Counted from the stretch's first letter, positions 1 through 28,518 are shown. The stretch is DNA of 64,000 bases from an uncultured Acidobacteriota bacterium (GCA_963700145.1 OY969474.1:992001-1056000), one strand, 5' to 3'. Program-made: numbers and translations. The notes: generated by a model from the letters alone, not told the origin.

Positions 1-3000
1 GCGAGGGCTGCGGCGTCGTGGTGCTAATGCGGCTCGACGCGGCGCGCGCCGCCGGGCGCCGGGTGCGCGCGGTGATCCGCGGCTGGGGCGTGTCCTCGGA
101 CGGCCGCGGCGGGCTGACGCGGCCGGAGGTGGAAGGGCAGATGCGGGCGCTCGCCCGCGCCTACGCGTGCGCCGGGCTGGCGATCGGCGAGGTCGCCTAC
201 TTCGAAGGGCACGGCACCGGCACCGCGGTGGGCGACGCAGCCGAGCTCGAGGCGCTGTCGCGGGCGCGCCGGCAGGACCGCGGCGACGAATGCGATGACC
301 GGGGAGGGCGGGCGCTCCCCGCCATCGGCTCGATCAAGGCGGTCATAGGACACACCAAGGCCGCGGCCGGGGTCGCCGGTCTGATCAAGGCGACGCTGGC
401 GCTCGAGGCGCAAGTGCTGCCGCCGACGATCGGCTGCGACGACCCGCACCCGCTCCTCGCCGGACCGGACGCCGCTCTGCGCGCGCCGGCGGCGGCGGAG
501 CCGTGGCCGGCGGCGGCACCGCTCCTCGCCGGCGTGAGCGCCATGGGGTTCGGCGGCATCAACGCGCACCTCGTGCTCGAGGGCGTGGCGGGCGAGCGGC
601 GGCGGCGGCTCGCCCCGGCCGAGCAGCTCCTCGCGGCATCGCCGCAGGACGCCGAGCTACTGCTGCTCGCGGCCGACGACGCGGCGGCGTTGGCACAGGA
701 GGTCGCGCGACTGGCGCGGCTCGCGCCCCGTCTTTCTCGGGCCGAGCTGGGGGACCTCACCGCGCGCCTCGCGGCCGACCTGCGGCCGGGGCGGCTGCGG
801 GCGGCGGTCGTGGCCGGCTCGCCCGCGGGTCTCGCGCGGCGCCTCGAGAAGCTCGCCGACTGGCTCGCCCTCCTGCCGCCGTCTGACGCCGATGACGTGG
901 GCTGCTGGCGGCAGCTCGACGCCGCGGACGGTGTCTTCCTGGGGCTCGGCGGACAGGCGCCACGGCTCGGCTTCCTCTTCCCCGGCCAAGGAGCGCCCGT
1001 TCCCGCCGCCGGCGGCGCACTGGCGCGGCGCTTCGCCGCCGCGGCCGAGGTCTACGCCGGGCTTGACCTGCCGTCCGTAGAGGACCGCATCGCCACCGCC
1101 GTCGCCCAGCCGGCCATCGCCGCCGCCACGCTCGCCGCGCTGAGGGTGCTCGAGCTGCTGCGGATCGAGGCCGCGGTCGCGGTCGGGCACAGCCTGGGGG
1201 AGCTTGCGGCGCTAACCTGGGCGGGAGCACTCGACGCCGCCGCGCTGGTGCGGGTGGCGGCGGCGCGCGGCCGGGCGATGGCGGAGGTCGACGCCCCGCC
1301 GGGAGCGATGGCCAGCCTGGCGGCGGCGCCGGAGGCGGTCGCGAGCTTCCTCGCCGGCGGCGAACTGGTGGTGGCCGCGTACAACACGCCGGCCGACACC
1401 GTGGTCTCCGGTCCGGCGGCCGCCGTCGAGCGCCTGATCGAGCGCGCCCGTGCCGCCGGTCTGCCGGCCTCGCGCCTCGCCGTCTCGCACGCCTTCCACG
1501 CGCCGGCCATGGCGGCGGCGGCACCGCGCCTGGCGGCGGCGCTGGCGGCGGAGGCTCTGCGGCCGCCGGTCCGCCGGGTCGTCTCGACGGTCACCGGCCG
1601 GCCGCTGCCGCCAGAGGTGGACCTCGTCCGCCTGCTCCTCGACCAGCTCACGCATCCGGTGCGCTTCGTCGCGGCGCTGGCCGCCGCCGGACCGGTGGAC
1701 CTCTGGATCGAGGTCGGCCCCGGCCGGGTGACGAGCGGCCTCGCCGCCTCCTGCGGCGCGGCGCCGGCGGTGCCGCTCGACGCCGGCGGGCCGTCGCTCC
1801 GCGGGCCGCTGCAGGCCGCGGGCGCCGCCTTCGCTCTCGGCGCGCCGGTTGCGGCGGCGGCGCTGTTCGCCGGGCGCTTCACACGGCCGTTCGATCCCGA
1901 GCGCCCGCTGCGCTTCCTCGCCAACCCCTGCGAGCGGGCGCCGGTAGCGCCTAACGATCTCGGCGCCGAGCCGAGCGTGAGGCAAAGAGAAGAAAGGAGT
2001 CCGATGGGGGCAGAACAAGCGCACGCTGCCGCCGACCCGCTGGCGGTCGTGCGCGGGCTCGTCGCCGAGCGCGCCGAGCTGCCGCTCGCGGCCGTGGACG
2101 AGACGAGCCGCCTGCTCGGCGATCTCCACCTGAGCTCGATCGCCGTCGGCCAGCTCGTCGTCGAGGCGGCGCGGCGGCTCGGGCGCGCGGCGCCGGCCGC
2201 GATCATCGAGTACGCCGGCGCCACCGTCGGCGAGGTGGCGCGTGCGCTCGCCGAGCAGCCGCAGCGCGACGAGGCGGCGGCCGAGCCCGAGCGCTGGCCG
2301 GCCGGAGTGGACGCCTGGCTGCGCGCCTTCATCCTCGCTTGGGTGGAGAGGCCGGCGGCGCCGCCGCGCCCGCTCCCCGTCGGCGGCGCCTGCGGCTGGC
2401 GCGTGATGGCGCCGGCCGGGCACCCGCTGGCCGAGCCGCTGCGCCGTGAGCTGGCGCGGGCCACGGGCGGGGGCGTCGCCGTGTGCCTGCCGGCGGAGCC
2501 CGGCGCCGCCACTCCCGGTCTCCTCCTCGCCGCCGCGCACGCGGTCATGGCGCTACCGCGGCCGGCCTGCTTCGTGGCGGTGCAGGCCGCGGGATGGGGA
2601 GGTGGGTTCGCGCGCACTCTCCATTTGGAACGGCCGGATCTCGCCACCGCCGTCGTCGAGGTTCCCTTGGTGGCGCCGGACGGCCATCCGGCCAGCATCG
2701 CGGCTTGGGTGGCGCGCGAGGCCGCGGCGGCGCTCGCCGCCGGCGGCTATCACGAGGCGCGCTACGACGACGCCGGGCGGCGCAGCGAGCCGGTCCTCCG
2801 CCTGCTCGCCGAGCCGCCGCTCGACGTCGAGCCCGCCGCCCCCGCCGCGCTCCCTCTCGGTCCAGACGACGTCCTCCTGGTCACCGGCGGCGGCAAGGGG
2901 ATCGGCGCCGAGTGCGCGCTGGCGCTGGCTCGCGCGAGCGGCGCGCGGCTGGCCCTCCTCGGCCGCTCGCGGCCCGAAGAGGACGGCGCGCTGGCCGCGA

Positions 3001-5057
3001 ACCTCGAGCGCCTGCGCGCCGCCGGGGTGGCCTTCGCCTACCTGAACGCCGACGTCACCGATCCCGACGCGGTCGCGGCGGCGGTGCGCGCAGCGGAGCG
3101 CCGGCTCGGGCCGGTCACCGCCGTGCTCCACGCCGCGGGAAGCAACTCCCCGTGCCTCGTGGCGGCGCTCGACGAGGCGGCGTTCCGCCGCACCCTGGGG
3201 CCCAAGGTCGACGGCCTCGCGCACGTGCTCTGGGCGCTCGATCCGGCGCGCCTCCGCCTGCTGGTCGCCTTCGGCTCGATCATCGGCCGCACCGGTCTGC
3301 CCGGCGAGGCCGACTACGGCGTCGCCAACGAGTGGCTGGCGCGCCGCGTCGAGGCGTTCGCGGCGGCGTTCCCGGCCTGCCGCTGCCTCACCGTCGAGTG
3401 GTCGGTCTGGTCGGGGGTCGGCATGGGCGAGCGACTCGGCCGTGTGGAGGCGCTGCTGCGCGAGGGGATCACGCCGATCCCGCCCGACGGCGGAGTCGCG
3501 GCGCTCCTCGCGCTGCTGCGCCGGCCGCCGCCGGCGACCTCGGTCGTGGTCTGCGGCCGCTTCGGCGACCCGCCGACGCTGCGCCTTGAGCGCCGCGAGC
3601 TGCCGCTGCTCCGCTTTCTCGAGGTGCCGCGCGTCCACGTGCCGGGTGTGGAGCTGGTGGTGGAGAGCGATCTCTCGGCCGATTCCGACCCCTACTTCGC
3701 CGACCACCAGCTCGCGGGCGAGCGCCTGCTGCCGGCGGTGATCGGGCTCGAGGCGATGGCGCAGGCCGCGATGGCGGTCGCCGGTGCGACGGCGCTGCCG
3801 GTCTTCGAGGAGGTCGCGTTCCTGCGCCCGGTCGGGCTCCCGGCCGCCGGCCGGACGCGGCTGCGCATCGCGGCGCTCGGACGCGAGCCGGGGCGGGTGG
3901 AGGTGGTCCTCCGCTGCGCCGCGACCGGCTTCGCGGCCGACCACTTCCGCGCCACCTGCAGCTTCACGGCGGGGCGCCCCGAGGCGGCGACGCCGGCGGG
4001 CGCGGCGCCCGCCGACGAGCCGCCGGCGCGCCTCGCGCTCGACCCCCAGCGCGAGCTCTACGGCGACCTGCTGTTCCACGGCGCCCGCTTCCAGCGTCTG
4101 AGCGGTTACCGGCGGCTGCGCGCCACCGAGTGCCTCGCCGAGATCTCGCCTGACGGTCATACCGAGTGGTTCGGGAGCTACCTGCCCGCGACTCTGGTGT
4201 TGGGCGACCCCGGCGCCCGCGACGCCGCGCTGCACGGCGTGCAGGCCTGCGTGCCACACGCGACTCTCCTGCCGATCGGCGTCGAGCGGATCGAGACCGC
4301 GCCGCTCGCCACCGATCAGCCGTGCCGCGTCACTGCCCGCGAGCGGCGGCGCGACGGGAACACCTTCGTCTTCGACCTCGAGATCGCCGACGCCGGCGGC
4401 GCCCGCGAGCGCTGGCTGGGGCTCCGCCTGCGCGCCGTCGCCGCGCTGTCGCCGCGCGCCGCCTGGCCGCTGCCGCTCCTCGCTCCCTACGTCGAGCGCC
4501 GGCTCGAGGAGCTGCTGCCGGCGGGCCGGCTGGCGGTCGTCCTGGAGCGCGCCGCCCGGGGCGAGCGCCGCGCCGCCGCCGGCCGGGCGCTGGCCGCCGC
4601 GCTCGGGACCGCCGCCGTCGTTGCCCGCCGTCCCGACGGCCGGCCGGAGGGGCCCGGCGGCCGCGCCGTCTCGGTGGCGCACACGGTGGGCCTGGTGCTG
4701 GCGGTGACCGGCGCCGGTCCGCTCGGCTGCGACCTCGAGCCGGTCGCGGACCGCCCGCCGGAAGCCTGGCGCAGCCTCCTCGGGAGCGAGCGGTCGGCGC
4801 TCGCGGCGCTGCTCGGCCGCGAGCGCGGCGAGGACGCGGCGGCCGCGGCGACGCGCGTCTGGACCGCGGCCGAGTGCCTGAAGAAGGCCGGCGCCCCGGC
4901 CGCAGCGCCGCTGGTGCTGGCCGGCGGCACGGCCGACGGCTGGGTGCTGCTGCGCTCGGGACGGCTGCAGGTGGCGACGCTGGTGACCGGCATCGGCGCG
5001 GAGAGCGGGCGTCTGGCGCTGGCGGTGGCGGCGGAGGCGGTCGATGCCCTTCTTTGA
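1..5057 (+). CDS. pksE: Enediyne iterative type I polyketide synthase (PKSE), 5'-truncated by the window edge
   Basis: Frame is open from the window start (EGCGVVVL). KS motifs EGHGTGTAVGD and GSIKAVIGHTKAAAG; AT GHSLGE and HAFH; central ACP LGDLHLSSIAVGQL; KR TGGGKGIG and YGVANEW; DH DPYFADH..LLPAV; C-terminal PPTase GCDLE..WTAAECLKK. This domain order is diagnostic of PKSE. Confidence 0.96.
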   Translation, partial: EGCGVVVLMRLDAARAAGRRVRAVIRGWGVSSDGRGGLTRPEVEGQMRALARAYACAGLAIGEVAYFEGHGTGTAVGDAAELEALSRARRQDRGDECDDRGGRALPAIGSIKAVIGHTKAAAGVAGLIKATLALEAQVLPPTIGCDDPHPLLAGPDAALRAPAAAEPWPAAAPLLAGVSAMGFGGINAHLVLEGVAGERRRRLAPAEQLLAASPQDAELLLLAADDAAALAQEVARLARLAPRLSRAELGDLTARLAADLRPGRLRAAVVAGSPAGLARRLEKLADWLALLPPSDADDVGCWRQLDAADGVFLGLGGQAPRLGFLFPGQGAPVPAAGGALARRFAAAAEVYAGLDLPSVEDRIATAVAQPAIAAATLAALRVLELLRIEAAVAVGHSLGELAALTWAGALDAAALVRVAAARGRAMAEVDAPPGAMASLAAAPEAVASFLAGGELVVAAYNTPADTVVSGPAAAVERLIERARAAGLPASRLAVSHAFHAPAMAAAAPRLAAALAAEALRPPVRRVVSTVTGRPLPPEVDLVRLLLDQLTHPVRFVAALAAAGPVDLWIEVGPGRVTSGLAASCGAAPAVPLDAGGPSLRGPLQAAGAAFALGAPVAAAALFAGRFTRPFDPERPLRFLANPCERAPVAPNDLGAEPSVRQREERSPMGAEQAHAAADPLAVVRGLVAERAELPLAAVDETSRLLGDLHLSSIAVGQLVVEAARRLGRAAPAAIIEYAGATVGEVARALAEQPQRDEAAAEPERWPAGVDAWLRAFILAWVERPAAPPRPLPVGGACGWRVMAPAGHPLAEPLRRELARATGGGVAVCLPAEPGAATPGLLLAAAHAVMALPRPACFVAVQAAGWGGGFARTLHLERPDLATAVVEVPLVAPDGHPASIAAWVAREAAAALAAGGYHEARYDDAGRRSEPVLRLLAEPPLDVEPAAPAALPLGPDDVLLVTGGGKGIGAECALALARASGARLALLGRSRPEEDGALAANLERLRAAGVAFAYLNADVTDPDAVAAAVRAAERRLGPVTAVLHAAGSNSPCLVAALDEAAFRRTLGPKVDGLAHVLWALDPARLRLLVAFGSIIGRTGLPGEADYGVANEWLARRVEAFAAAFPACRCLTVEWSVWSGVGMGERLGRVEALLREGITPIPPDGGVAALLALLRRPPPATSVVVCGRFGDPPTLRLERRELPLLRFLEVPRVHVPGVELVVESDLSADSDPYFADHQLAGERLLPAVIGLEAMAQAAMAVAGATALPVFEEVAFLRPVGLPAAGRTRLRIAALGREPGRVEVVLRCAATGFAADHFRATCSFTAGRPEAATPAGAAPADEPPARLALDPQRELYGDLLFHGARFQRLSGYRRLRATECLAEISPDGHTEWFGSYLPATLVLGDPGARDAALHGVQACVPHATLLPIGVERIETAPLATDQPCRVTARERRRDGNTFVFDLEIADAGGARERWLGLRLRAVAALSPRAAWPLPLLAPYVERRLEELLPAGRLAVVLERAARGERRAAAGRALAAALGTAAVVARRPDGRPEGPGGRAVSVAHTVGLVLAVTGAGPLGCDLEPVADRPPEAWRSLLGSERSALAALLGRERGEDAAAAATRVWTAAECLKKAGAPAAAPLVLAGGTADGWVLLRSGRLQVATLVTGIGAESGRLALAVAAEAVDALL

Positions 5058-5469
5058 GCAGCGCCACGTGGTCGCCTTCGAGGACACGAACCTGGTGGGC
5101 AACGTCTATTACGTGAACTACCTGAGCTGGCAGGGACGGTGCCGCGAGATGTTCATCCGCGCCTACTGCCCGGAGCTGCTCGCCGAGCTGGCCGGCGGGC
5201 TGGCCCTGGTCACCACCCGCTGCTCGTGCGATTTCCTGCGCGAGCTCGCGGCGTTCGACGAGGTGGCGGTGCGCATGCGCCTGGGCGAGCTCGGGCAGAG
5301 CCGCGTGACCATGCTCTTCGACTATTGGCGGCTGGCCGCCGAGGGCGAGGAGCTGGTGGCGCGAGGCGAGCAGCAGGTGGCCTTCATGCGGCGCGAGGCG
5401 GACCGGCTGGTGCCGGCGCCGGTCGCGCCGCGCTTCCGGGAGGCCGTCCAGGCCTTCGTCACGCAGTGA
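5044..5469 (+). CDS. Enediyne hot-dog-fold thioesterase (SgcE10/CalE7/DynE7-like)
   Basis: HVVAFEDTNLVGNVYYVNYLSWQGRCRE signature; overlaps the pksE stop by 14 nt. Confidence 0.95.
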   Translation: MPFFEQRHVVAFEDTNLVGNVYYVNYLSWQGRCREMFIRAYCPELLAELAGGLALVTTRCSCDFLRELAAFDEVAVRMRLGELGQSRVTMLFDYWRLAAEGEELVARGEQQVAFMRREADRLVPAPVAPRFREAVQAFVTQ

Positions 5470-5498
5470 GCGCGGCGCGAGCCGCAGGAGGAGAGGCG

Positions 5499-6425
5499 AT
5501 GGCGATTCCACTCGCGGGCGGCGCACGGCCGGACACCATCCAGGCCCACCGCCGGGCTGTGGACCGGGTCATCCAGGCGATGCACGAGAACCTCGCCGAG
5601 GAGTTCTCGCTCGAGGACATGGCCGACGTGGCGCTCATCAGCCCCTATCACTTCAACCGCGTCTTCCACCAGGTGGCCGGCGTGCCTCCCTGCCAGTTCC
5701 TGAGCGCGCTGCGCCTCTGGCACGCCAAGCGCCTGCTGCTGACGACGCACCTCAAAGTGACCGACATCTGCTTCGAGGTGGGCTACAACAGCCTCGGCAC
5801 CTTCACCCGCCGCTTCACCGACCTCGTCGGGGTGCCGCCGCAGCGTCTGCGGGCGCTGGGCCGCTCGGGTGGGCTCGAGTCGCTCATGGAGCGGCTCCGC
5901 GCGAGCCTCGTCGCGCACGCCGCGGAGGCGGCGGACGCCATCGGCGGCGAGACCGCCGGCGGGCCGGCCCCGGGCAGGACCCCCGCGGCGCGCGCCGGCG
6001 CCCGCGGCGGCCCGGCGGGCCTGCACGGCGTGGCGCACGCGCCGGCGGGCTTCCACGGGCCAGTCTTCGTCGGCCTCTTCGCCAGCTCGCTGCCGCAGGG
6101 ACGGCCGCTCGCCTGCACCGTCCTGGCGCAGCCCGGGAGCTTCCACATCGCGCGCCCGCCGGACGGCACGCTCCACCTCTTCGCCGCCGCGGTCGAGCCC
6201 CGGGCGCAGGACGCCGCCGAGCACCTGCTCTTCGAGCGGGCGCTGCGCGGCACCGCCGGCGGGCGGGTGGTCAGGGTGCGCAACGGCGCTGCGGCGGCGC
6301 CGGTCGATCTCGTGCTGCGCGCCCCCGAGGCGGTCGATCCGCCCATCCTGCTGACCTTCCCAGTGCTGCTCGCCGAGCGGCTGGTGGGAGCCCCAGCCGC
6401 AGCGCCCGGCGCGGCGGTGAACTGA
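5499..6425 (+). CDS. AraC-family transcriptional regulator (N-terminal HTH pair plus C-terminal domain)
   Basis: SLEDMADVALISPYHFNRVF and VTDICFEVGYNSLGTFTRRF; GGAGGAG SD before ATG 5499. Confidence 0.92.
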   Translation: MAIPLAGGARPDTIQAHRRAVDRVIQAMHENLAEEFSLEDMADVALISPYHFNRVFHQVAGVPPCQFLSALRLWHAKRLLLTTHLKVTDICFEVGYNSLGTFTRRFTDLVGVPPQRLRALGRSGGLESLMERLRASLVAHAAEAADAIGGETAGGPAPGRTPAARAGARGGPAGLHGVAHAPAGFHGPVFVGLFASSLPQGRPLACTVLAQPGSFHIARPPDGTLHLFAAAVEPRAQDAAEHLLFERALRGTAGGRVVRVRNGAAAAPVDLVLRAPEAVDPPILLTFPVLLAERLVGAPAAAPGAAVN

Positions 6426-6466
6426 GCGCGCCCCTGGCGCGCAGGACGAGCGTGGAGGAACGAACC

Positions 6467-8026
6467 ATGAGCCACCGATCCCACCACATCGCGCAACTCT
6501 CCCTGTTGCTCGCCGTCGCCGTCGCCTTCGGCTACCTGCTCGGCACACAAGGAACGCTCGTCTGGGGCCTCGACGGGCCGCGGAACGAGCAGCCGGCACC
6601 GCGCACGACCTCCGACGGCATGGTCGCCCCTTCGCCTCCCGCCGCGGCCGCCGACTGGCGCCGCCCGTACCCGCAGCTCCAGCCGCTCGGCGAGGTGCTC
6701 GCGCCGTTCCCGGCGGCGGCGCCCGGCACGCTCGTGCCGCAGGATCTGTACCGCTACGGCGGCCGCGGCAAGCGCGAGTTCGCCTCGGTCGACGACGTGC
6801 CGGAGTTCGCCGCCTTCCACCGCGCGATGGCGGCGCAGAAGCCGCAGGTGATGGCCGCGCGCCGCGACTATCTCGAGCGCCGCTACGAGCTGTCCGGCCA
6901 CACCGCGGCGGACGCCGCGATGACGCGCGGCAAGCCGCTGCCCGTGGGACCGGTGGTGCGGCTCCCCGCAGCGGTCGCCTCGTGGGAGGAGCTGGCGGCG
7001 CTGCCACCCGCGGAGATCCTCCGCCGCGATCTCCTTCCCGAGGGGTTTCGCCCGCTCTCGCACCCCCTCCACTCGACCGGTCACGCCCTCTTTCCCGGTC
7101 CCTGGGTGACGGCCCACCCCGAGCACCGGCGCTTCGACGTCGACTTCGACCTGCCCGAGGCCTATCTGCCGGAGTTCCCGCCGCCGCTGTTCTTGACCAC
7201 CCGCCCCGATCTGGGCGACGTCTCGCAGGGCAAGGAGGTCAACCAAGCCAACTTCCGCGAGCTTTTCGAAGGCGTCTTGACGCCTGAGCAGCTCGAAGGG
7301 CTGCGCCTGCTGGTGACGCCGGCGGCCACCACCTGGTTCAACCACACGAAGCACCGCGTCACCGTCCAGCCGTCGCGCGGCGTCGCCTGCCTCGACTGCC
7401 ACGTCAACGGCCACACCAACGGCGCCATCGTCCTCGACCCCGGCTCGCGGCCGACCCTGGCGCGCACGCGCCTGGACACGCCGAGCCTCCGCGGCAACAA
7501 CGTCAACGCACTCTTCTCCGCGCGCCGCTCGATCCGCTCGCTCGACCATTTCGCTGAGGTCGAGGAGTACTTCGACGGCGACATCTCGATCCAGCCGCAG
7601 ATCGGCGGCCGCCAGCTCGACAAGCCCTCGACCAACCGCATGGGCGACTTCAACGCCATCGTCGGCTTCCCGCCGGCGCCCAAGCTCACTCGCCTGGGGC
7701 GCCTCGACCAGCGGCAAGCGAGCGCCGGCGAGCTGCGCGGTGAGCGCCTGTTCTTCGGCAAGGCGCAGTGCGGCACCTGCCATCCGGCTCCGTACTACCT
7801 CGACAACTCGATGCACGACCTGCGGGTCGAGGAGCTCTACCGCGGCCGGGCCGAGGGCTGGATCAAGACCTTCTCCTTGCGCGGCATCAAGGACAGCCCG
7901 CCCTACCTCCACGACGGCCGTCTGCCGACCCTCGAGGACACGGTCGAGTTCTTCAACCTGCTGCTCGGGACGCGGCTGACCCACGAGGAGAAGCGCGACG
8001 TGGTGGCATTCCTGCGCTGCCTGTAA
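6467..8026 (+). CDS. Exported di-heme cytochrome c, cytochrome c peroxidase-like
   Basis: N-terminal hydrophobic segment; CLDCH and CGTCH heme motifs; TPSLRG and PPYLHDGR. Confidence 0.85.
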   Translation: MSHRSHHIAQLSLLLAVAVAFGYLLGTQGTLVWGLDGPRNEQPAPRTTSDGMVAPSPPAAAADWRRPYPQLQPLGEVLAPFPAAAPGTLVPQDLYRYGGRGKREFASVDDVPEFAAFHRAMAAQKPQVMAARRDYLERRYELSGHTAADAAMTRGKPLPVGPVVRLPAAVASWEELAALPPAEILRRDLLPEGFRPLSHPLHSTGHALFPGPWVTAHPEHRRFDVDFDLPEAYLPEFPPPLFLTTRPDLGDVSQGKEVNQANFRELFEGVLTPEQLEGLRLLVTPAATTWFNHTKHRVTVQPSRGVACLDCHVNGHTNGAIVLDPGSRPTLARTRLDTPSLRGNNVNALFSARRSIRSLDHFAEVEEYFDGDISIQPQIGGRQLDKPSTNRMGDFNAIVGFPPAPKLTRLGRLDQRQASAGELRGERLFFGKAQCGTCHPAPYYLDNSMHDLRVEELYRGRAEGWIKTFSLRGIKDSPPYLHDGRLPTLEDTVEFFNLLLGTRLTHEEKRDVVAFLRCL

Positions 8027-19007: not shown

Positions 19008-20465
19008 TCAGTCGCCGGCGGCGACGGTGGCGTCGAAGGCACCGGTGAGCACCTGACCGCCGCTCTTGGCCTGGACCCAGATGCGGTAGCGGCCGGGCTC
19101 CGGAAAGGCGTAGGGGAAGGACAGGTCGGACGGGAGGGGGCGCGGGGAGACGGCGGCAGGCGCTGCGGTGTGGCCGGCATGCGCCGAGGCGGACGCTCGC
19201 TCGCGGCGGGCGAAGAGCTGGAGCGAGGCCATGGAGACGGTACCGGAGGGGTGGAGATGGACGAACACCTCGCCGTCGTCGCGGGCGATGACGGCGTGTC
19301 CGGGCATGCCCATGTACGGCTCGAGGGGGAGGGGCCGGCCCGCCGCGTCCTGGAGCGCGAAGCCGAGGGCCGTCTCGCGACCGGCGGTGAGCCGCTCGTG
19401 GCCCCGTAACCAGAGCATCTCGGCGCCGCAGTCGAGCTGAGCGGTCCGGGCCGCGTGCCAGGAGTCGTCCGGATCGGAGGCCAGGCCGGGCTCGCCTCCG
19501 GCCGCGGGATCGGGCGGCGGCGGCAGGTCCACGCTGCCGACGAGGGTGTGCGCGAAGCCGGTCTCCTCGGTGACGTCGGCGAAAAGACGATAGCGGCCGG
19601 CGGTGAGGGGAGGCAGGACGGCCTCGAAGCTGCGGTCGTCGACCGGCGTCGGGTGGAGATGGGCGAAGCCGCCGCGGTCTCCCTCGCCGAGCAGGAAGAG
19701 GTGAACGAGCTTGCCGTGGTCGGGGACGAGCGGGGCGGTGCGCGCCCAGCGCTCGTCGGCGACCGCGAGCGTGAGCAGGCGCTGCGGGCCTTCGACGGCG
19801 GCGCGCGCGTCGAGCCGGAAGGTTTGGTAGAGGCCGGCGCGGTGCGCGGCGTCGGCGCGGTCCCACCAGCCCTTGCCGAGCGCGAGGACGAGGGTGAGGA
19901 CGGCGGCGGCCAGGACGCCGGCGCGGCGGCCGCGCCGGCGTTCCCGCGCCTCCGGCCCGGCTCCCGGAGCGAGGGCGCTCTCGCGCGCCGCGGCGGCGGT
20001 GACCGCGACCGCGCCGGCGAAGAGCAGCGCCGCGAGCGCCGCCAGCAGTGCGCCGCGCCAGCGGGGCATCGGGCTGCGCTCCATGACGACCGGCGCGACC
20101 GGCACCGCCGCCGTGCCGTGGCCGCGGTCGCCGTCCACCTCGACCTGGAGGTAGTACGAGCTCACGGTCATCAGCCAGAGGTCCGCCCGGTAGAGACCCA
20201 CCGCGCCGCGCACGGGCGCGGCTGGCTCGGCGCCGGGCGCGCCAGCGAGGCCGGCGTCCCAGCGCACCGGACGCACCGCCACGCGCCGCGCCCGCCCGGC
20301 CTCGACGCGCACCGCCACCTCCGCCACCCCCGGCACCACGGCCGGCGGCCGCACGGTGACACGCACCGGGTAGGCTCCCGCCGCGCCGCGGAAGAAGACG
20401 TCCGGGCTGCCCACGTGCCCCATCGTCGCCAGCGCGAGCACGGCGAGCAGGAGGAGCCGGCTCAT
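19008..20465 (-). CDS. Membrane-anchored protein with His-rich, putatively metal-binding motifs
   Basis: HVGSPD N-terminus; LVPDHGKLVHLF..FAHLHP and LEPYMGMPGH..FVHLHP repeats. Confidence 0.7.
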   Translation of the reverse strand: MSRLLLLAVLALATMGHVGSPDVFFRGAAGAYPVRVTVRPPAVVPGVAEVAVRVEAGRARRVAVRPVRWDAGLAGAPGAEPAAPVRGAVGLYRADLWLMTVSSYYLQVEVDGDRGHGTAAVPVAPVVMERSPMPRWRGALLAALAALLFAGAVAVTAAAARESALAPGAGPEARERRRGRRAGVLAAAVLTLVLALGKGWWDRADAAHRAGLYQTFRLDARAAVEGPQRLLTLAVADERWARTAPLVPDHGKLVHLFLLGEGDRGGFAHLHPTPVDDRSFEAVLPPLTAGRYRLFADVTEETGFAHTLVGSVDLPPPPDPAAGGEPGLASDPDDSWHAARTAQLDCGAEMLWLRGHERLTAGRETALGFALQDAAGRPLPLEPYMGMPGHAVIARDDGEVFVHLHPSGTVSMASLQLFARRERASASAHAGHTAAPAAVSPRPLPSDLSFPYAFPEPGRYRIWVQAKSGGQVLTGAFDATVAAGD

Positions 20466-21682
20466 CGCTGCACCCGCCGCAGCCAGCGTCCGAGGACGAG
20501 CCCGAGCCCCGCCGACGCGGTCGCCGCGAGGAAGGTCCAGGCGATCGCCTCAGGCGCCAGCGCGTCGGTCTCCCAGAACTGGTAGCGCCACGCCCCGAGC
20601 CGCGGGTGGACGCCTTCCACGGTGGCGGTGACGCCGAAGTACCACTCGTCCCCGGCGAAGACAGGGTTGCGGGCCCGCGGCGAGAGGAGGAAGGCGGCGA
20701 GAGGCCACTGGACCGCCGCGAAGGCCACCACGAACAGCGCGCCCAGGAGCGGTGCCGCCAGCAGCCCCTGCAGGCGCATCCGGAGACCGCGGCGGAGGGC
20801 GTCTCCGGCCGCCCGCCGCCGCGTCACGAGATCGACGGCAACCGCGGGCGCCAGCAGCAGGAGCGGAAAGATCCCGGGCCACATGTGGTCGACGCGGTTG
20901 AAGACCGGCGCCAGCCCCGGCTCGGCGGGGAAGAGCGGCAGGATCCAGAGCGTCGCCAGCGAGAGCGCGGTATAGACGGCGGCGACCGTCGTCGCCGCCC
21001 ACCGCCGGCCCGTCCGCGCCACCGCCACCAGGAGCCACGGGTAGGCGAGGGCCGAGGCGCGGTAGAAGGCGGCGCCGTGCTGGCGGTTGGGGTAGTTGGA
21101 CTCGAGCAGGAGGGTCGCCAGGAGGAGCGCGGTGACGCCGGCGACGGCGAGCAGGCCTCCCTCGAGCCACCGGCGCGCGCCCCCGGCCGCGCGGTTGGCG
21201 AGCGCCGCGGCCTGGAGGAGCGTGCCGAGGTGCACGACGACCATCCCCGTGGCGAGCACGCTGTGCGCCGGCGTGACGATGCCGACGTCGAGGCCGTAGG
21301 TGCCGTGCCACCAGGCGTCGAAAGGGGCCGCCGTCAGCATGGCGGCGGCGCCCCAGAGCGACACCCAGGCGCCGATCGGCGCGCGGAAGCCCCAGACCCG
21401 CACGGCGGCGGCGCGCTCGTGCGCCGCGCCGGCGAAGGTGGTGCGCGCCACGAGCCACGCCGCCGCGAGACCGGCGAGGAGGCTCCCCAGGTAGATCGTG
21501 ACGTGGGCCGGCGTCCAGAAGCTGTCGCGGCCGACGCTGGCGTGCCAAGAGATGTCCCAGAGGAGGCCGAGAGTGATGGCGCCGCAGCCGGCGGTCGCGG
21601 CCGCCAGCGCCGCCCGCCGTACGTCGACCCGCGCGTCGATCTCGTGGACTGCGACGAGCCTCTCGCCGGCCAGACTCGTCAC
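20462..21682 (-). CDS. Polytopic membrane protein with repeated WDxxWH motifs
   Basis: WDISWH..RDSFWTPAH and FDAWWH..TPAH; many TM helices; translationally coupled on both sides. Confidence 0.75.
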   Translation of the reverse strand: MTSLAGERLVAVHEIDARVDVRRAALAAATAGCGAITLGLLWDISWHASVGRDSFWTPAHVTIYLGSLLAGLAAAWLVARTTFAGAAHERAAAVRVWGFRAPIGAWVSLWGAAAMLTAAPFDAWWHGTYGLDVGIVTPAHSVLATGMVVVHLGTLLQAAALANRAAGGARRWLEGGLLAVAGVTALLLATLLLESNYPNRQHGAAFYRASALAYPWLLVAVARTGRRWAATTVAAVYTALSLATLWILPLFPAEPGLAPVFNRVDHMWPGIFPLLLLAPAVAVDLVTRRRAAGDALRRGLRMRLQGLLAAPLLGALFVVAFAAVQWPLAAFLLSPRARNPVFAGDEWYFGVTATVEGVHPRLGAWRYQFWETDALAPEAIAWTFLAATASAGLGLVLGRWLRRVQR

Positions 21683-24612
21683 GGCACAGGCTCGAGCAGC
21701 CGCCGCACCTCGCGCTCGAGGCCGTCGGCGGAGATCCCGCCGCTCACCACGCGCGCGATCGCGCCCGAGGCGTCGAGCACCACCGCCGCCGGCAGCGGCA
21801 CGGCGCCGTCGCCGAACGCGGCCTCGAGGAGGGGAGCCATCGCTTGCATGTCGGAGAGCCCCATGCGGTACTGGGGCCGGGTGCGTGCGATGAAGTCACG
21901 CGCGGCATTGGCATCGGGCTCGAAGGAGATTCCGACGACCTGCGCGTCGTCACCGAGCCGGCGCTGCAGCGCATCGAGCTCCGGCACCTCGGCCGCGCAA
22001 GGCAAGCACCAGGAAGCCCACAGGCTCACCACCGCCGGCCTGCCAGCGGAGAGCGTGAACGGCGTTCCTTCCGTGGTCCACGCACGCCAGACGGGACGTT
22101 GCGCGGCGGGCGTGCGGGCGGAGGCAGGCTCCGCCCCCAACCCTTCGGCGAACGCACGCAGCGCCGTCAGAGTCACCCGCCCTTCTCCCTCGACGATCCG
22201 TACCACGTTCCCCGCCGGCAGGTCGCGGAAGGTCTCGACGCTCCCTCCCGGCCAGCGCACCGTCAGCTCGTCCGCCCGCTGCGCGCCGCCCAGGCCGAAG
22301 TGCAGCGTCGCCTCCGACTGCGCCTGGAAGCCGCTCCCCGCCGAGCGCACCCGCACCTGCCGCAGGCCGCCGGCGGTGAGCCGCGCCACCGCCCCGACCG
22401 CGTCGCGGTTGCCGCGCGTCCCGACCAGCTCGACGCGGAGGGCGTTGCCGCGCCAGGCGGCGTCGTTGTGGAGGTAGGCGAGCTTCTGCCGCGCCACGCT
22501 CCGCACCACGAGGTCGAGGCCGCCGTCGCCGTCGAGGTCGCCGACGGCGACGCCGCGCCCCTCGAGGTCGAGGTCGATCCCGAGCGGGTAGCCGGCCTCG
22601 ACGAAGCGCCCGCCGCCGCCGTTGACGAAGAGGCAGTTGCGCTCGCGGGCGTTGAAGCTGAACCCCTTGAGCGCGCCGTCGCTCGCCAGGAGATCGAGGT
22701 CATCGGGCCCCAGGCGGGTCATCAGACGCGACACCGCCTCCTTCTTCTCCAGGGTCCTGCCGCTCGCTTCGGGCGTCAGCGCCAGGACCTGGCGCCAGTA
22801 GAGCGGTCAGGCATCGGCATCGCTGGTCCCCGCCCAGAAGCCGTTGGCGACGTGGAGGTCGAGCCGGCCATCGTTGTCGTAGTCGAGGAAGTTGCTCCCC
22901 CAGGCCCAGCCCGCGAGGTGCACGGCGGCGGTCGCGCCGCGCTCCTCGAAGCGGGTCTCGCCGGCGGCGTCGGGGCCGGCGTTGCGGTAGAGCGAGTTGC
23001 CGCGCGCGCTCCACAGCAGCTTCTGGCGCAGCACCGGATCGAGGTCGGGGACGAGCGGCACGAACTGGTTGCCGGTCTTCGAGTACATGTTGGCGACGTA
23101 GAGGTCGAGCCGGCCGTCGTTGTCGTAGTCGCCCCAGTCGGCGCCCATGCCGTTGGCGGGGTCGGCGACGCCGGCGCGCGCCGCCACCTCCTCGAAGCGC
23201 ACCTCGCCCGCGGCGTCGCGGCCGCGGTTGCGGAAGAGCTGGTCGTCGCCGAAGTCGTTGGCGACGAAGAGGTCGATCCGGCCGTCGTCGTCGTAGTCGG
23301 CCCAGGCCGAGGCGTAGGCCCAGCCCGCGCCGCGCACGCCGGTGCTCTCGCCGACCTCGGCGAAGCGGAAGCCGCCCAGGTTGCGGTAGAGGCGATTGCC
23401 GAAGCCGTCGCGCGCCTCGACGAAGTGATGGTAGGGGTGGAGCTTGGTGTCCTGGTAGTAGGTGACGAAGAGGTCAAGCAGGCCGTCGCCGTCGTAGTCG
23501 GCGGCGGAGGCGCCGCTCGCCGGCCCGACCGGCCCGAGCTCGCCGGGCAGGCGCGTGAAGCGCGTCGCGCCGCCGCGCGGGCCGTCGTTGCGGTAGAGGA
23601 CGTGCCCGCGCCGCGCGTGCTCGCCCTGGATCAACGTGTAAGCGGCATTGACGACGAAGAGGTCGAGGTCGCCGTCGTTGTCGAGGTCCACCCAGAGCGC
23701 CGCCTGGCCGTTGCCGGGATCGCCGACGCCGGCCGCCGCCGTCACGTCCACGAAGCCGCCGCGGCCGTCGTTGCGCAGCAGCGCGTTGGGGCCGGCGCGC
23801 ACGACGTAGAGGTCGGGCCGGCCGTCGCGGTCGTAGTCGCCGATGGCGACGCCGCCGTAGAGGATCTGGCCGTACGCGAAGTCGGTCGGGTCGTAGCCCT
23901 CGTCGCGCCAGTCGGCGGGGAGGCCGGCGCGCGCTGTCCGGTCGCTGAAGGCGGGGCCGGCGCTCTCGAAGCGCTCGCGCTCGCCCCAGACGAGGCGCGT
24001 CAGGCGCCAAGCGCCCTCGCCGTCCTCGGCCAGCTCGGCGGCGACGTCGCCCTTCTCGCCGACGCGGCTGCCGTCGGCGGTGACGCCGCCCAGCCAGAGG
24101 TGGAGGTCGACGGCGGCGCGCCGCGGGCCGTCGCCGCGCGGCGTCGCGAGCACCCGGTAGGGCTTGAAGAAGCAGCGCTCGACGCGCTGCCACGAGCCGG
24201 TCAGGAGCGCGAGGTCCGCCGCGAAGGCCGCCGGCCCGCCGAAGCAGCCGGCGTCGGCCGGCCGGAGGAGCGATCCGTGCGCGTGCGCGCCGGCGACGAC
24301 CGGCGTCTCGGCGCGCGGGAAGAGCCGCTGCACCCGCGCCTCGGGCGCGAGGTACGGGCGGACGGCGTCGACGTCGAACGCCGTCAGCACGCGGCAGACG
24401 CCGCCCATCGTCACTTCCTTGACCGCCGCCGCGATCGCCTCGACCTCGACCAGGTCGCGCTCGGGCTCGGCGATCGCGAGGGACGGCGGCGCGGCGGAGC
24501 AGGTATCCGCCGGCGGCGGCGACGGCGGGCTCGCGGCCGCGGCGGCGGACGCCGCGCCCGCGGCCGCGAGACAGAGCGGGGCGAGCGGCCGGAGCGCCGC
24601 GCGAAGCGTCAC
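21679..24612 (-). CDS. Exported FG-GAP (CRTAC1-like) + ASPIC/UnbV + TlpA thioredoxin protein; probable selenoprotein (in-frame TGA at 22807-22809)
   Basis: Track ORFs 22807..24909 and 21679..22734 share a frame and are separated only by one TGA. DYDxDGxxDL repeats continue on both sides; UnbV GNRDAVGA..LHFGLG; WASWCLPC. Confidence 0.82.
22779..22795 (-). promoter_or_regulatory. Bacterial SECIS-like hairpin
   Basis: mRNA UGA-CCGCUCUACUG-GCGCCAG-GUC-CUGGCGC: perfect 7-bp stem starting 11 nt after UGA with a G-led apical loop. Confidence 0.75.
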
Positions 24613-26904: not shown

Positions 26905-28518
26905 ATGCGACGCACCACCACCGCCTGCCTGGCGGCGGCCGTCGTCGCGAGCCTGCCGCCGCTGATCGCCGCCGGCGCCGGGGAGCCGATCGGCCGCGAG
27001 GTCGCGGTGCCGCGGCACCTGGCCGACGGCGAGGAGCTCAGCGCGCCGCTGGCGGCGGTGCTCGAGCACGGGCGGCGGCTCTTCGCCGCCATGTGGACGT
27101 CGCAGGAAGGGGCCGGCCGGCCGCTCACCAAGGGCACCGGCGATCCGGTGAGCGACTCCGGCTCCCCCCTGGTCTTCCCGCGCAACTTCAACCGCGTCTC
27201 GGGGCCGGACGCCAACTCCTGCGCCGGCTGCCACAACGCTCCCTTCGGCATCACCGGCGGCAGCGGCGACGTCGCCACCAACGTCTTCGTCCTGGCGCAG
27301 CGCTTCGACGCGGCGGACTTCGACCGCAGCGACGCGACGCTGACGCGGGGCGCGCACGACGAGGCGGGGCAATCGGTCGGTCTCGCCACGGTCGGCAACA
27401 GCCGCAAGACCGTGGGTCTCTTCGGCAGCGGCTACCTCGAGCTGCTGGCGCGCGAGATCACCGCCGAGCTCAGGGCGATCCGCGACTCGATCCCTCCCGG
27501 CGGCGCGCGCCAGCTGGTCGCCAAGGGGATCTCGTTCGGCACCTTGCGCCGGGTGGTGGACGGGCGGTGGGACGTCTACGGGGTCGAGGGCCTGCCGGCC
27601 TCGAGCCTAGCCACCTGGGGACCGGACGAGCCGCCGAGCCTCGTCGTGCGTCCCTTCCACCAGGCGGGGGCGATCGCCTCGCTGCGCGAGTTCACCGTCA
27701 ACGCCCTGAACCACCACCACGGCATCCAGGCCGCGGAGCGCTTCGGACGGCGCCGCGACCCGGACGGCGACGGCTTCGTCGACGAGGCCACCCGCGCCGA
27801 CGTCACCGCGCTCACGCTCTTCCAGGCCGTCATGGCGGTCCCCGGCAGAGTCGTCCCGCGCGACCCCGCGATCGAGCAGGCGATCGCTCTCGGGGAGGCG
27901 CGCTTCGCCGAGATCGGCTGCGCCGGCTGTCACGTGCCGGCGCTGCCGCTCGCCGACGCGCGCTACGTCGAGCCCGGGCCGCACAACCCGGTGGGCACCC
28001 TGCGGCGCGGGCAGGCGCCGCCGCTGGCGGTGGACCTCAACAGCAAGGAGCTGCCCCCGCCGCGCCTCGGCGGGCGGGACGGGACCACGATGGTGCCGGC
28101 CTACACCGACTTCAAGCTGCACGACATCACGGCCGGGCCCGCGGACCCCAACCGCGAGCCGCTCGACATGATCCAGCCTGCCGGCACGAACGCCTTCTTC
28201 GCCGGCAACGCGAGCTTCGTCACCCGTCGCCTCTGGGGCATCGGCAACCAGGGGCCCTACTTCCACCACGGCAAGTTCACCACCCTGCGCGAGGCGGTGC
28301 TGGCGCACGCCGGCGAGGCGCAGGCGGCGACCGACGCCTTCCTCGCCCTGCCGGCGCGCGAGCGCGACTGCGTCATCGAGTTCCTGAAGTCGTTGCAGGT
28401 GCTGCCGCCGGGCAGCCGCTCGCTCGTCGTCGACGAGCGCGGGCGGCCGCGGCCGTGGCCCCGCCGCGACCCGGGCCCCGCAACCTCGGATAAGCAACCG
28501 CGCTCCGGACCGCGATAG
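26905..28518 (+). CDS. Di-heme oxidoreductase (DHOR / thiol oxidoreductase-like), exported
   Basis: NSCAGCH and GCAGCH; YTDFKLHD; LWGIG..PYFHHG..AVLAHAGEA..FLKSL. Confidence 0.85.
   Translation: MRRTTTACLAAAVVASLPPLIAAGAGEPIGREVAVPRHLADGEELSAPLAAVLEHGRRLFAAMWTSQEGAGRPLTKGTGDPVSDSGSPLVFPRNFNRVSGPDANSCAGCHNAPFGITGGSGDVATNVFVLAQRFDAADFDRSDATLTRGAHDEAGQSVGLATVGNSRKTVGLFGSGYLELLAREITAELRAIRDSIPPGGARQLVAKGISFGTLRRVVDGRWDVYGVEGLPASSLATWGPDEPPSLVVRPFHQAGAIASLREFTVNALNHHHGIQAAERFGRRRDPDGDGFVDEATRADVTALTLFQAVMAVPGRVVPRDPAIEQAIALGEARFAEIGCAGCHVPALPLADARYVEPGPHNPVGTLRRGQAPPLAVDLNSKELPPPRLGGRDGTTMVPAYTDFKLHDITAGPADPNREPLDMIQPAGTNAFFAGNASFVTRRLWGIGNQGPYFHHGKFTTLREAVLAHAGEAQAATDAFLALPARERDCVIEFLKSLQVLPPGSRSLVVDERGRPRPWPRRDPGPATSDKQPRSGPR

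Follow-up and report, generated by a model that had tools for sequence, protein, structure and literature searches.

Bacterial selenoprotein families with a TlpA/ResA domain are characterised by a coding-region selenocysteine insertion sequence (SECIS), a TlpA/ResA-type thioredoxin fold and presumed extracytoplasmic thiol/selenol exchange, and their selenocysteine (Sec) replaces a cysteine inside the CxxC motif of the thioredoxin fold. No known member of the CRTAC1/ASPIC/UnbV proteins (PF07593 together with FG-GAP repeats) is a selenoprotein or has been assigned an enzymatic chemistry; we know of no activity for this superfamily, from bacteria to mammals. In Neisseria PilB/MsrAB, a periplasmic catalytic module is fused to a TlpA/DsbE-like domain that recycles the oxidised catalytic residue. 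Here we describe a gene that shares properties with all three, found in a 64,000-nucleotide stretch of the genome of an uncultured Acidobacteriota bacterium (GCA_963700145.1 OY969474.1:992001-1056000), which we call the window. The selenoprotein reading of this gene is strongly supported by comparison with its homologues, and we put at roughly 0.8 the probability that it is one gene for an exported protein of about 977 residues in which Sec at codon 602 is cycled by the protein's own CxxC domain. The predicted protein would share all three characteristics of the TlpA/ResA-domain selenoproteins and differ from them in having an all-sulfur CxxC, with Sec placed 267 residues upstream in a beta-propeller. 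With the CRTAC1/ASPIC/UnbV proteins it has in common the domain pair over Pfam cut-offs, a CRTAC1 fold match and DxDxDG calcium-type loops, to which the window's clade would add Sec at the start of a helix, a fused CxxC domain and an N-terminal alpha+beta domain. The likeness to PilB/MsrAB, a catalytic module with a built-in TlpA-like reductase domain, is an analogy only: here the module is a propeller of unassigned activity, and the residue recycled would be Sec.

Translation of the minus strand from 24612 to 21679 gives a single open frame of 977 codons whose sole interruption is a TGA (22809..22807) at codon 602, reading ..NGFWAGTSDADA-TGA-PLYWRQVLALTPE.. across it. The GTG start at 24612 has the sequence GAGGAGG about 10 nucleotides on its 5' side. 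Genome-wide recoding of TGA as a sense codon was considered and rejected, because the gene itself terminates at a TGA (21681..21679). The initial annotation had joined two open reading frames (ORFs) into one frame across the TGA, placed Sec near residue 602 of a product of about 977 residues, and described a perfect hairpin 11 nucleotides after the TGA; the translation, with recognised domains on both sides of the interruption, and the position of the 7-bp stem (Table 1) agree with this description throughout.

The TGA is found at the same position in many related genes. In a six-frame search of 40 related genomes, the seven best non-self matches each contain a TGA, and 7 of 10 aligned loci have it at the window's exact column (L022-L027 and L030, representing six other genera within the order); in three paralogues that are more remote (L028, L029, L031), the segment or the TGA is missing. 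We further scanned one genome per species with an 8-row alignment (A1) and took the best 80 of 578 confirmed relatives, with 29-38% identity to the window protein over the best segment: a stop occupies the column in 51 of these loci, every one of them TGA, and a sense codon in the other 29 (Ala in 13, Ser in 10, Gly in 2, and Gln, Tyr, Asn and Glu in one each). By record label, the TGA loci include 29 from Acidobacteriota, 13 from Planctomycetota and 8 from Verrucomicrobiota; 28 of the non-TGA loci are labelled Acidobacteriota (21 of them Terriglobia) and one comes from a bin labelled Actinomycetota. Leaving out L081, L097 and L102, which come from genomes flagged as unpublished and on which none of our conclusions depends, gives 50 TGA and 27 non-TGA loci out of 77. 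The same frame continues past the TGA in all 59 TGA-bearing genes (the window's, those of the 7 relatives and the 51 loci), with conserved residues directly following.

These data bear on whether the TGA arose by faulty sequencing or assembly, or is a nonsense mutation confined to one strain in a gene that is decaying. Only the stop codon itself favours such an explanation. Independent coverage is modest: among contigs from four sequencing runs compared with the window, one run covers the TGA, with a low-depth soil-metagenome contig (X4; 151 nucleotides, depth 2) that spans 22763-22911 and has no difference listed at the TGA or the hairpin. The same codon, however, is found at this column in 58 further genes, from the gene's own order and from records of three phyla, and it is flanked by purifying conservation on both sides and accompanied by a covarying RNA structure. 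The comparative data thus refute an error or a strain-specific mutation for practical purposes, and we consider either vanishingly improbable.

The distribution of the Sec form is patchy. In four genomes of the same genus (G001-G004) there is no close match to the whole gene, the best reaching E 1e-52 or weaker over part of the query, and clear Sec-form relatives occur in other families of the order. The query has 38 matches in the host genome, most of them to other FG-GAP/ASPIC proteins; none of the ASPIC paralogues at 4949500-4958500 has a TGA at this column, the TGA flagged there being at another site.

The alignment of homologues across the TGA, which the initial annotation had called for, shows that the hairpin too is kept in the TGA genes. 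We scored pairing in a fixed register of six pairs starting 11 nucleotides after the TGA: all six form in 46 of the 51 TGA loci (five in 4 loci, four in 1) and in none of the 29 non-TGA loci, with a mean of 5.88 pairs against 3.21. When 56 TGA sequences (53 distinct) are aligned without gaps, pairing is found in 98.1% of the 318 cells, none of 500 column shuffles reached the observed pairing or covariation score, and sliding the 3' arm by 1-3 columns as a control lowers pairing to 18-67%. The fourth pair occurs as five pair types (CG 18, GU 15, AU 11, UA 5, GC 4). One of its partners is the third, synonymous position of an Arg codon; the other is the first position of a codon that varies among Ser, Pro, Thr and Ala. 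The protein sequence appears to yield so that the RNA pairing is kept. The loop is GGUCG in 28 of the 51 TGA loci.

The E. coli fdhF SECIS is a minimal 17-nucleotide upper stem-loop 11 nucleotides after the UGA with a GGUC-type apex, and the window's hairpin shares with it the 11-nucleotide spacer, a short G+C-rich stem and a loop starting G-U or G-G; the stem sequences are unrelated. The published bacterial SECIS (bSECIS) model (PMC13188914) has a loop of 3-9 nucleotides with G in the first two loop positions, a stem of 4-16 bp, 16-37 nucleotides from UGA to loop, and a minimum free energy (MFE) of at most -7.5 kcal/mol. The window's hairpin, with its perfect 7-bp stem, loop GUC and 18 nucleotides from UGA to loop, agrees with all four criteria of that model, its MFE being -22.8 kcal/mol over a 53-nucleotide stretch. 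A search of 22650-22900 against Rfam, at E up to 10, returned no SECIS family, and its three matches are at the level of chance.

A second Sec subfamily of ASPIC proteins (L025:2269-2271, L027:2113-2115, L030:3028-3030), reading ..DDL-U-LPYILGAVAHI.., has the hairpin GCGC-GGUC-GCGC about 16 nucleotides after the TGA despite the different residues that follow Sec. Its proteins end about 220 residues after Sec.

The host genome, a single contig of 5.46 Mb, encodes all of the Sec machinery whose lack, according to the initial annotation, would have spoken against a selenoprotein: a tRNA-Sec that scores 70.3 bits (cut-off 47) and that ARAGORN calls SeC with anticodon tca, selA (442.9 bits), selB (361.8 bits) and selD (339.5 bits). 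The selD gene has its own in-frame TGA at the canonical GGUxxK site (..TTGG-U-AAK..; L018:1531-1533, G000:C1 ~3788771), and from this and the full machinery it is evident that the host organism reads UGA as Sec. In the genomes of 45 of the 51 TGA loci selB is over the cut-off, the remaining six being draft assemblies. A stem-loop comes after the selD TGA in the host genome, where the Sec genes are dispersed (selB at 2.17 Mb, tRNA-Sec at 2.74 Mb, selA at 2.89 Mb and selD at 3.79 Mb).

Could the UGA nevertheless mostly terminate, or be read through without selenium? A 601-residue fragment, hairpin-stimulated near-cognate read-through or two products would result; bacterial Sec insertion is generally inefficient, and public gene callers end at this TGA. 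What argues against such outcomes, which we regard as very improbable, is that all 59 TGA-bearing genes stay in frame past the TGA and are conserved in the residues immediately following it, the fit of the hairpin to the bSECIS model, most members having a G-rich loop of the GGUC type, the presence of selB in 45 of the 51 TGA-locus genomes, and the decoding of the selD TGA at its canonical site by the same genome. Sec insertion at codon 602 is well supported on comparative grounds. SelB carrying Sec-tRNA(Sec) would bind the hairpin 11 nucleotides past UGA602, and Sec would be inserted in place of termination.

The initial annotation had named an FG-GAP/UnbV architecture ending in a WCLPC thioredoxin domain, and Pfam recovers each part over its cut-off: FG-GAP_3 in six stretches (137.5 bits), UnbV_ASPIC at residues 738-802 (65.1 bits) and Redoxin at residues 846-955 (42.7 bits). 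The WCLPC site, at residues 868-872, is followed by the acidic E875, as is characteristic of ResA/TlpA/DsbE-type domains. The C-terminal domain falls far under the cut-offs of the NCBIfam equivalogs TlpA, DsbE and ResA (TlpA 43.1 against 230 bits) and is thus a relative of the ResA/TlpA/DsbE type and not an equivalog; the rest of the protein has no NCBIfam match.

An AlphaFold2 model built from a 41-row alignment (predicted local distance difference test, pLDDT, 83.7; predicted template modelling score, pTM, 0.80) consists of an N-terminal alpha+beta domain, the propeller, an ASPIC beta-sandwich, a disordered linker at 826-838 and a thioredoxin fold. Sec602 is modelled as the first residue of a helix (602-611) after a strand (585-590) and a loop (591-601); a helix start after a strand and loop is a frequent place for a reactive Cys or Sec. 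Foldseek matches the propeller to the crystal structure of murine CRTAC1 (9etn_A, E 4.2e-28, TMt 0.74) and the C-terminal domain to ResA (TMt 0.82), TlpA, StoA and DsbE (TMt ~0.8), and also DsbF. We propose that the protein is exported, from its signal-like N-terminus, judged by eye and modelled as a helix at residues 10-27, and from the extracytoplasmic habit of ResA/TlpA domains. The domain at residues 54-217, two helices on a curved sheet in the model, is matched by no Pfam family and is partly common to several relatives.

The presence of Sec is tightly associated with the redox site of the C-terminal domain. An intact [WYF]CxxC is found in the thioredoxin-like domain of 51 of 51 TGA loci and in 1 of 29 non-TGA loci (L087); among the other non-TGA loci, six alignable domains have decayed motifs (..SPAC.., ..SPAS..), and in 22 of the 29 no alignment to the window's thioredoxin-like domain was found. 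In ten columns conservation reaches at least 90% within the Sec group and does not exceed 35% outside it, namely U602, W868, C869, P871, E875, D311, D313, D315, G650 and D700, of which D311, D313 and D315 are the three Asp of one DxDxD loop. Eight non-Sec cluster representatives have no thioredoxin-type Pfam match. A quick FastTree tree of 104 rows, covering the propeller region with the Sec column masked and the short L026 scored as lacking CxxC, requires at least nine changes in Sec state and at least ten in CxxC. Across 8 independent pairs that differ in Sec, CxxC differs in the same direction in 5-7, in the opposite direction in none and not at all in 1-3 (median sign-test p 0.031). The link between Sec and the protein's own CxxC domain, which the initial annotation had raised as a possibility, is supported by both the co-occurrence and the tree.

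In non-Sec relatives (L043, L048, L053 and others, mostly Terriglobia) the C-terminal part is about 650 residues long and its thioredoxin motif has decayed, which suggests that the thioredoxin domain is kept as a scaffold after loss of its redox site. In P0114, a related cluster representative, the C-terminal part has TPR repeats.

Co-evolution and domain homology make a selenol/thiol relay from Sec602 to the CxxC the most likely arrangement, and extracytoplasmic selenol/thiol redox chemistry the most likely function. The mature protein would be a CRTAC1-like FG-GAP/ASPIC beta-propeller joined by a flexible linker to a ResA/TlpA-like domain with a WCxPC motif. Outside the cytoplasm, the propeller would hold a substrate or oxidant for reaction with Sec602. 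The selenol would then be restored via a selenenylsulfide by Cys869 and Cys872 in the fused thioredoxin-like domain, and a membrane electron carrier would re-reduce that domain, as for ResA and TlpA.

A different role for an inserted Sec deserves consideration in light of the same columns and folds. Sec could be a ligand for a soft metal or metalloid (e.g., Cu, Hg, As), or a binding residue, and not a catalyst recycled by the CxxC, with the TlpA-like domain merely keeping Sec reduced or serving another client. TlpA-type domains reduce the copper-site cysteines of ScoI and CoxB, the solved complexes (4txo and 4txv) are among the Foldseek fold matches, and the column tolerates many residues in non-Sec relatives. 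No second soft ligand (Cys or His) specific to the Sec form and conserved was found near residue 602, however, the Sec-specific columns being those of the thioredoxin active site, one DxDxD loop, G650 and D700, and the tight co-occurrence of Sec and CxxC fits a direct partnership at least as well. We therefore consider a metal-binding or other non-catalytic role unlikely.

Several observations weigh against a catalytic Sec cycled by the CxxC, or reduce the force of the counts that favour it. Retrieval of the 80 loci used patterns built on TGA-bearing sequences, and the loci are mutually related, so 51 of 80 is not a prevalence; kinship among the loci means that the counts overstate independence. 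No Cys occurs at the column among the 29 non-TGA loci, and 16 motif-bearing representatives, drawn from a library of 1.84 billion proteins, have N (1), D (3), C (1), S (2), R (3), E (4), Q (1) and A (1) there. Two Cys forms were found: P0152 (806 residues), which is the closest full-length relative of the window's sub-clade, with 58% identity over the region, and lacks the thioredoxin domain, and P0100; neither has a CxxC. A Sec/Cys pair exists, but without the customary abundance of Cys homologues, and the combination of scarce Cys homologues and a variable column is unusual for a catalytic Sec. The initial annotation had held that an unconserved, non-Cys residue in homologues would count against Sec, and the non-Sec relatives literally show this; it does not refute the Sec reading, because in those relatives the hairpin and the CxxC are gone too.

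Further points of this kind concern the genomes, the domains and the RNA. In the genomes of 21 of the 29 non-TGA loci selB is also over the cut-off, and loss of the Sec trait thus does not explain the replacement of Sec in this gene. The second Sec subfamily (L025, L027, L030) lacks the fused thioredoxin domain, so a fused partner is not obligatory. Taken as a single sequence, the window's hairpin is not a significant fold at 74% G+C (z = -1.32, with 18 of 200 shuffles folding equally), and its significance comes from the comparison with homologues. Finally, the hairpin shares nucleotides with the codons of a conserved FWRQV motif, and part of its sequence conservation is therefore at the protein level.

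The window's own product is on public record as a 599-residue protein (P0153), and its sub-clade has nine more clusters that stop at this column, making 10 of the best 120 clusters at 90% identity; the same is true of 25 of the best 150 cluster representatives, and one record ending there is the NCBI "FG-GAP repeat domain-containing protein". A 2026 review (PMC13188914) terms its Table 1, with 119 prokaryotic selenoprotein families or subfamilies, the most comprehensive inventory; in that table no PF13517 or PF07593 family appears, and the review has zero matches to FG-GAP, ASPIC, UnbV or propeller. A full-text literature search found no paper linking selenoproteins with FG-GAP, ASPIC, UnbV, CRTAC1 or VCBS, the supplementary tables of surveys, which could list the family, being outside that search. 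Most likely, then, the gene belongs to a widespread, propeller-type bacterial selenoprotein family that public annotation cuts short, and soil and aquatic Acidobacteriota, Planctomycetota and Verrucomicrobiota would have a family that is now annotated as truncated fragments.

Standard selenoprotein discovery, as described in PMC12013277 and PMC13188914, depends on Sec/Cys pairs. A family nearly devoid of Cys forms is of a kind that such methods can miss, and the selenoproteomes of these phyla may be undercounted as a result. Sec and a co-evolving CxxC also point to redox chemistry in the ASPIC/UnbV/CRTAC1 superfamily, a question open to experiment. More tentatively, and with slightly less than even expectation of being right, we suggest that this is the first beta-propeller selenoenzyme, in which Sec602 would be the catalytic nucleophile of a new extracytoplasmic redox activity with its own ResA/TlpA-type recycling domain. 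If true, it would give a first chemical handle on the function of the superfamily and, since Cys forms are almost absent, an example of Sec gained and lost at a site without the usual Sec/Cys exchange.

Table 1. Positions in the window of the candidate selenoprotein gene and its parts
Feature	Position	Strand	Remarks
Complete gene	21679..24612	-	977 codons + TGA stop 21681..21679; GTG start with GAGGAGG ahead
In-frame TGA, codon 602, predicted to be read as selenocysteine	22807..22809	-	Same column TGA in 7/10 relatives' loci and 51/80 loci
SECIS-like hairpin GCGCCAG-GUC-CUGGCGC	22779..22795	-	11 nucleotides 3' of UGA; spacer 22796-22806
Signal-peptide-like N-terminus, residues 1-28	24529..24612	-	Two Arg, then hydrophobic Ala/Leu run; by eye
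N-terminal alpha+beta domain, ~residues 54-217	23962..24453	-	Without Pfam family
FG-GAP beta-propeller, ~residues 254-720	22453..23853	-	DxDxDG calcium-type loops
UnbV_ASPIC domain, residues 738-802	22207..22401	-	Pfam
ResA/TlpA-like thioredoxin-fold domain (Redoxin, residues 846-955)	21748..22077	-	Pfam, NCBIfam, Foldseek
CLPC active-site motif, Cys869 and Cys872	21997..22008	-	WCLPC = residues 868-872

The initial annotation had further placed the gene inside an enediyne cluster and suggested that the selenol could activate, detoxify or mature the enediyne product. Enediyne polyketide synthases (PKSs) have the composition KS-AT-ACP-KR-DH-PPTase, and in the enediyne cassette the genes E3, E5 and E10 are contiguous with UnbV (E4). 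The nearest PKS, 16.6 kb from the selenoprotein gene with at least 10 ORFs between them on both strands, is a type I enzyme of about 1950 residues at 3-5057 (+) that begins upstream of the window (G000:C1:991193 onward) and is organised as KS-AT-KR-DH, the last being a PS-DH domain. Its NCBIfam matches are confined to generic type I PKS and PfaA models and fall well short of the cut-offs; no enediyne-specific model and no PPTase (phosphopantetheinyl transferase) domain was matched. The intervening ORFs include an AraC regulator, a MauG-like di-haem protein, a TPR protein, a methyltransferase, an S9 peptidase, an MFS transporter and several without a family, and no models named for E3, E5 or E10 are among the flanking-ORF results. 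In 5 of 5 other long-contig genomes there is no ketosynthase within ~290 kb of the Sec-form gene, or one on another contig only, distances for which contig numbering is assumed in four and certain for the single-chromosome record. The label "enediyne biosynthesis protein E4" that JGI gives to many homologues is a homology name. An enediyne role is not supported, nor is the proposed action of the selenol on an enediyne product, which was built on the cluster.

The AraC-type regulator at 5139-6425 is next after the PKS. On either side of the selenoprotein gene, the ORFs at 6452-8026 (+) and 26905-28518 (+) have weak C-terminal matches of the MauG/di-haem peroxidase-like kind (TIGR03791, E 6e-9; PF06537, E 2e-13). 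The window's flanking ORFs have no matches in the 1.5-kb flanks of 99 loci, flanks too short to tell whether the neighbourhood is shared. Directly downstream of the gene are two ORFs, at 20462-21682 (-) and 19008-20465 (-), that match no Pfam or NCBIfam family; because their stop and start codons overlap, the two may form an operon with the selenoprotein gene. One of the pair is apparently membrane-embedded and the other has a signal-like N-terminus.

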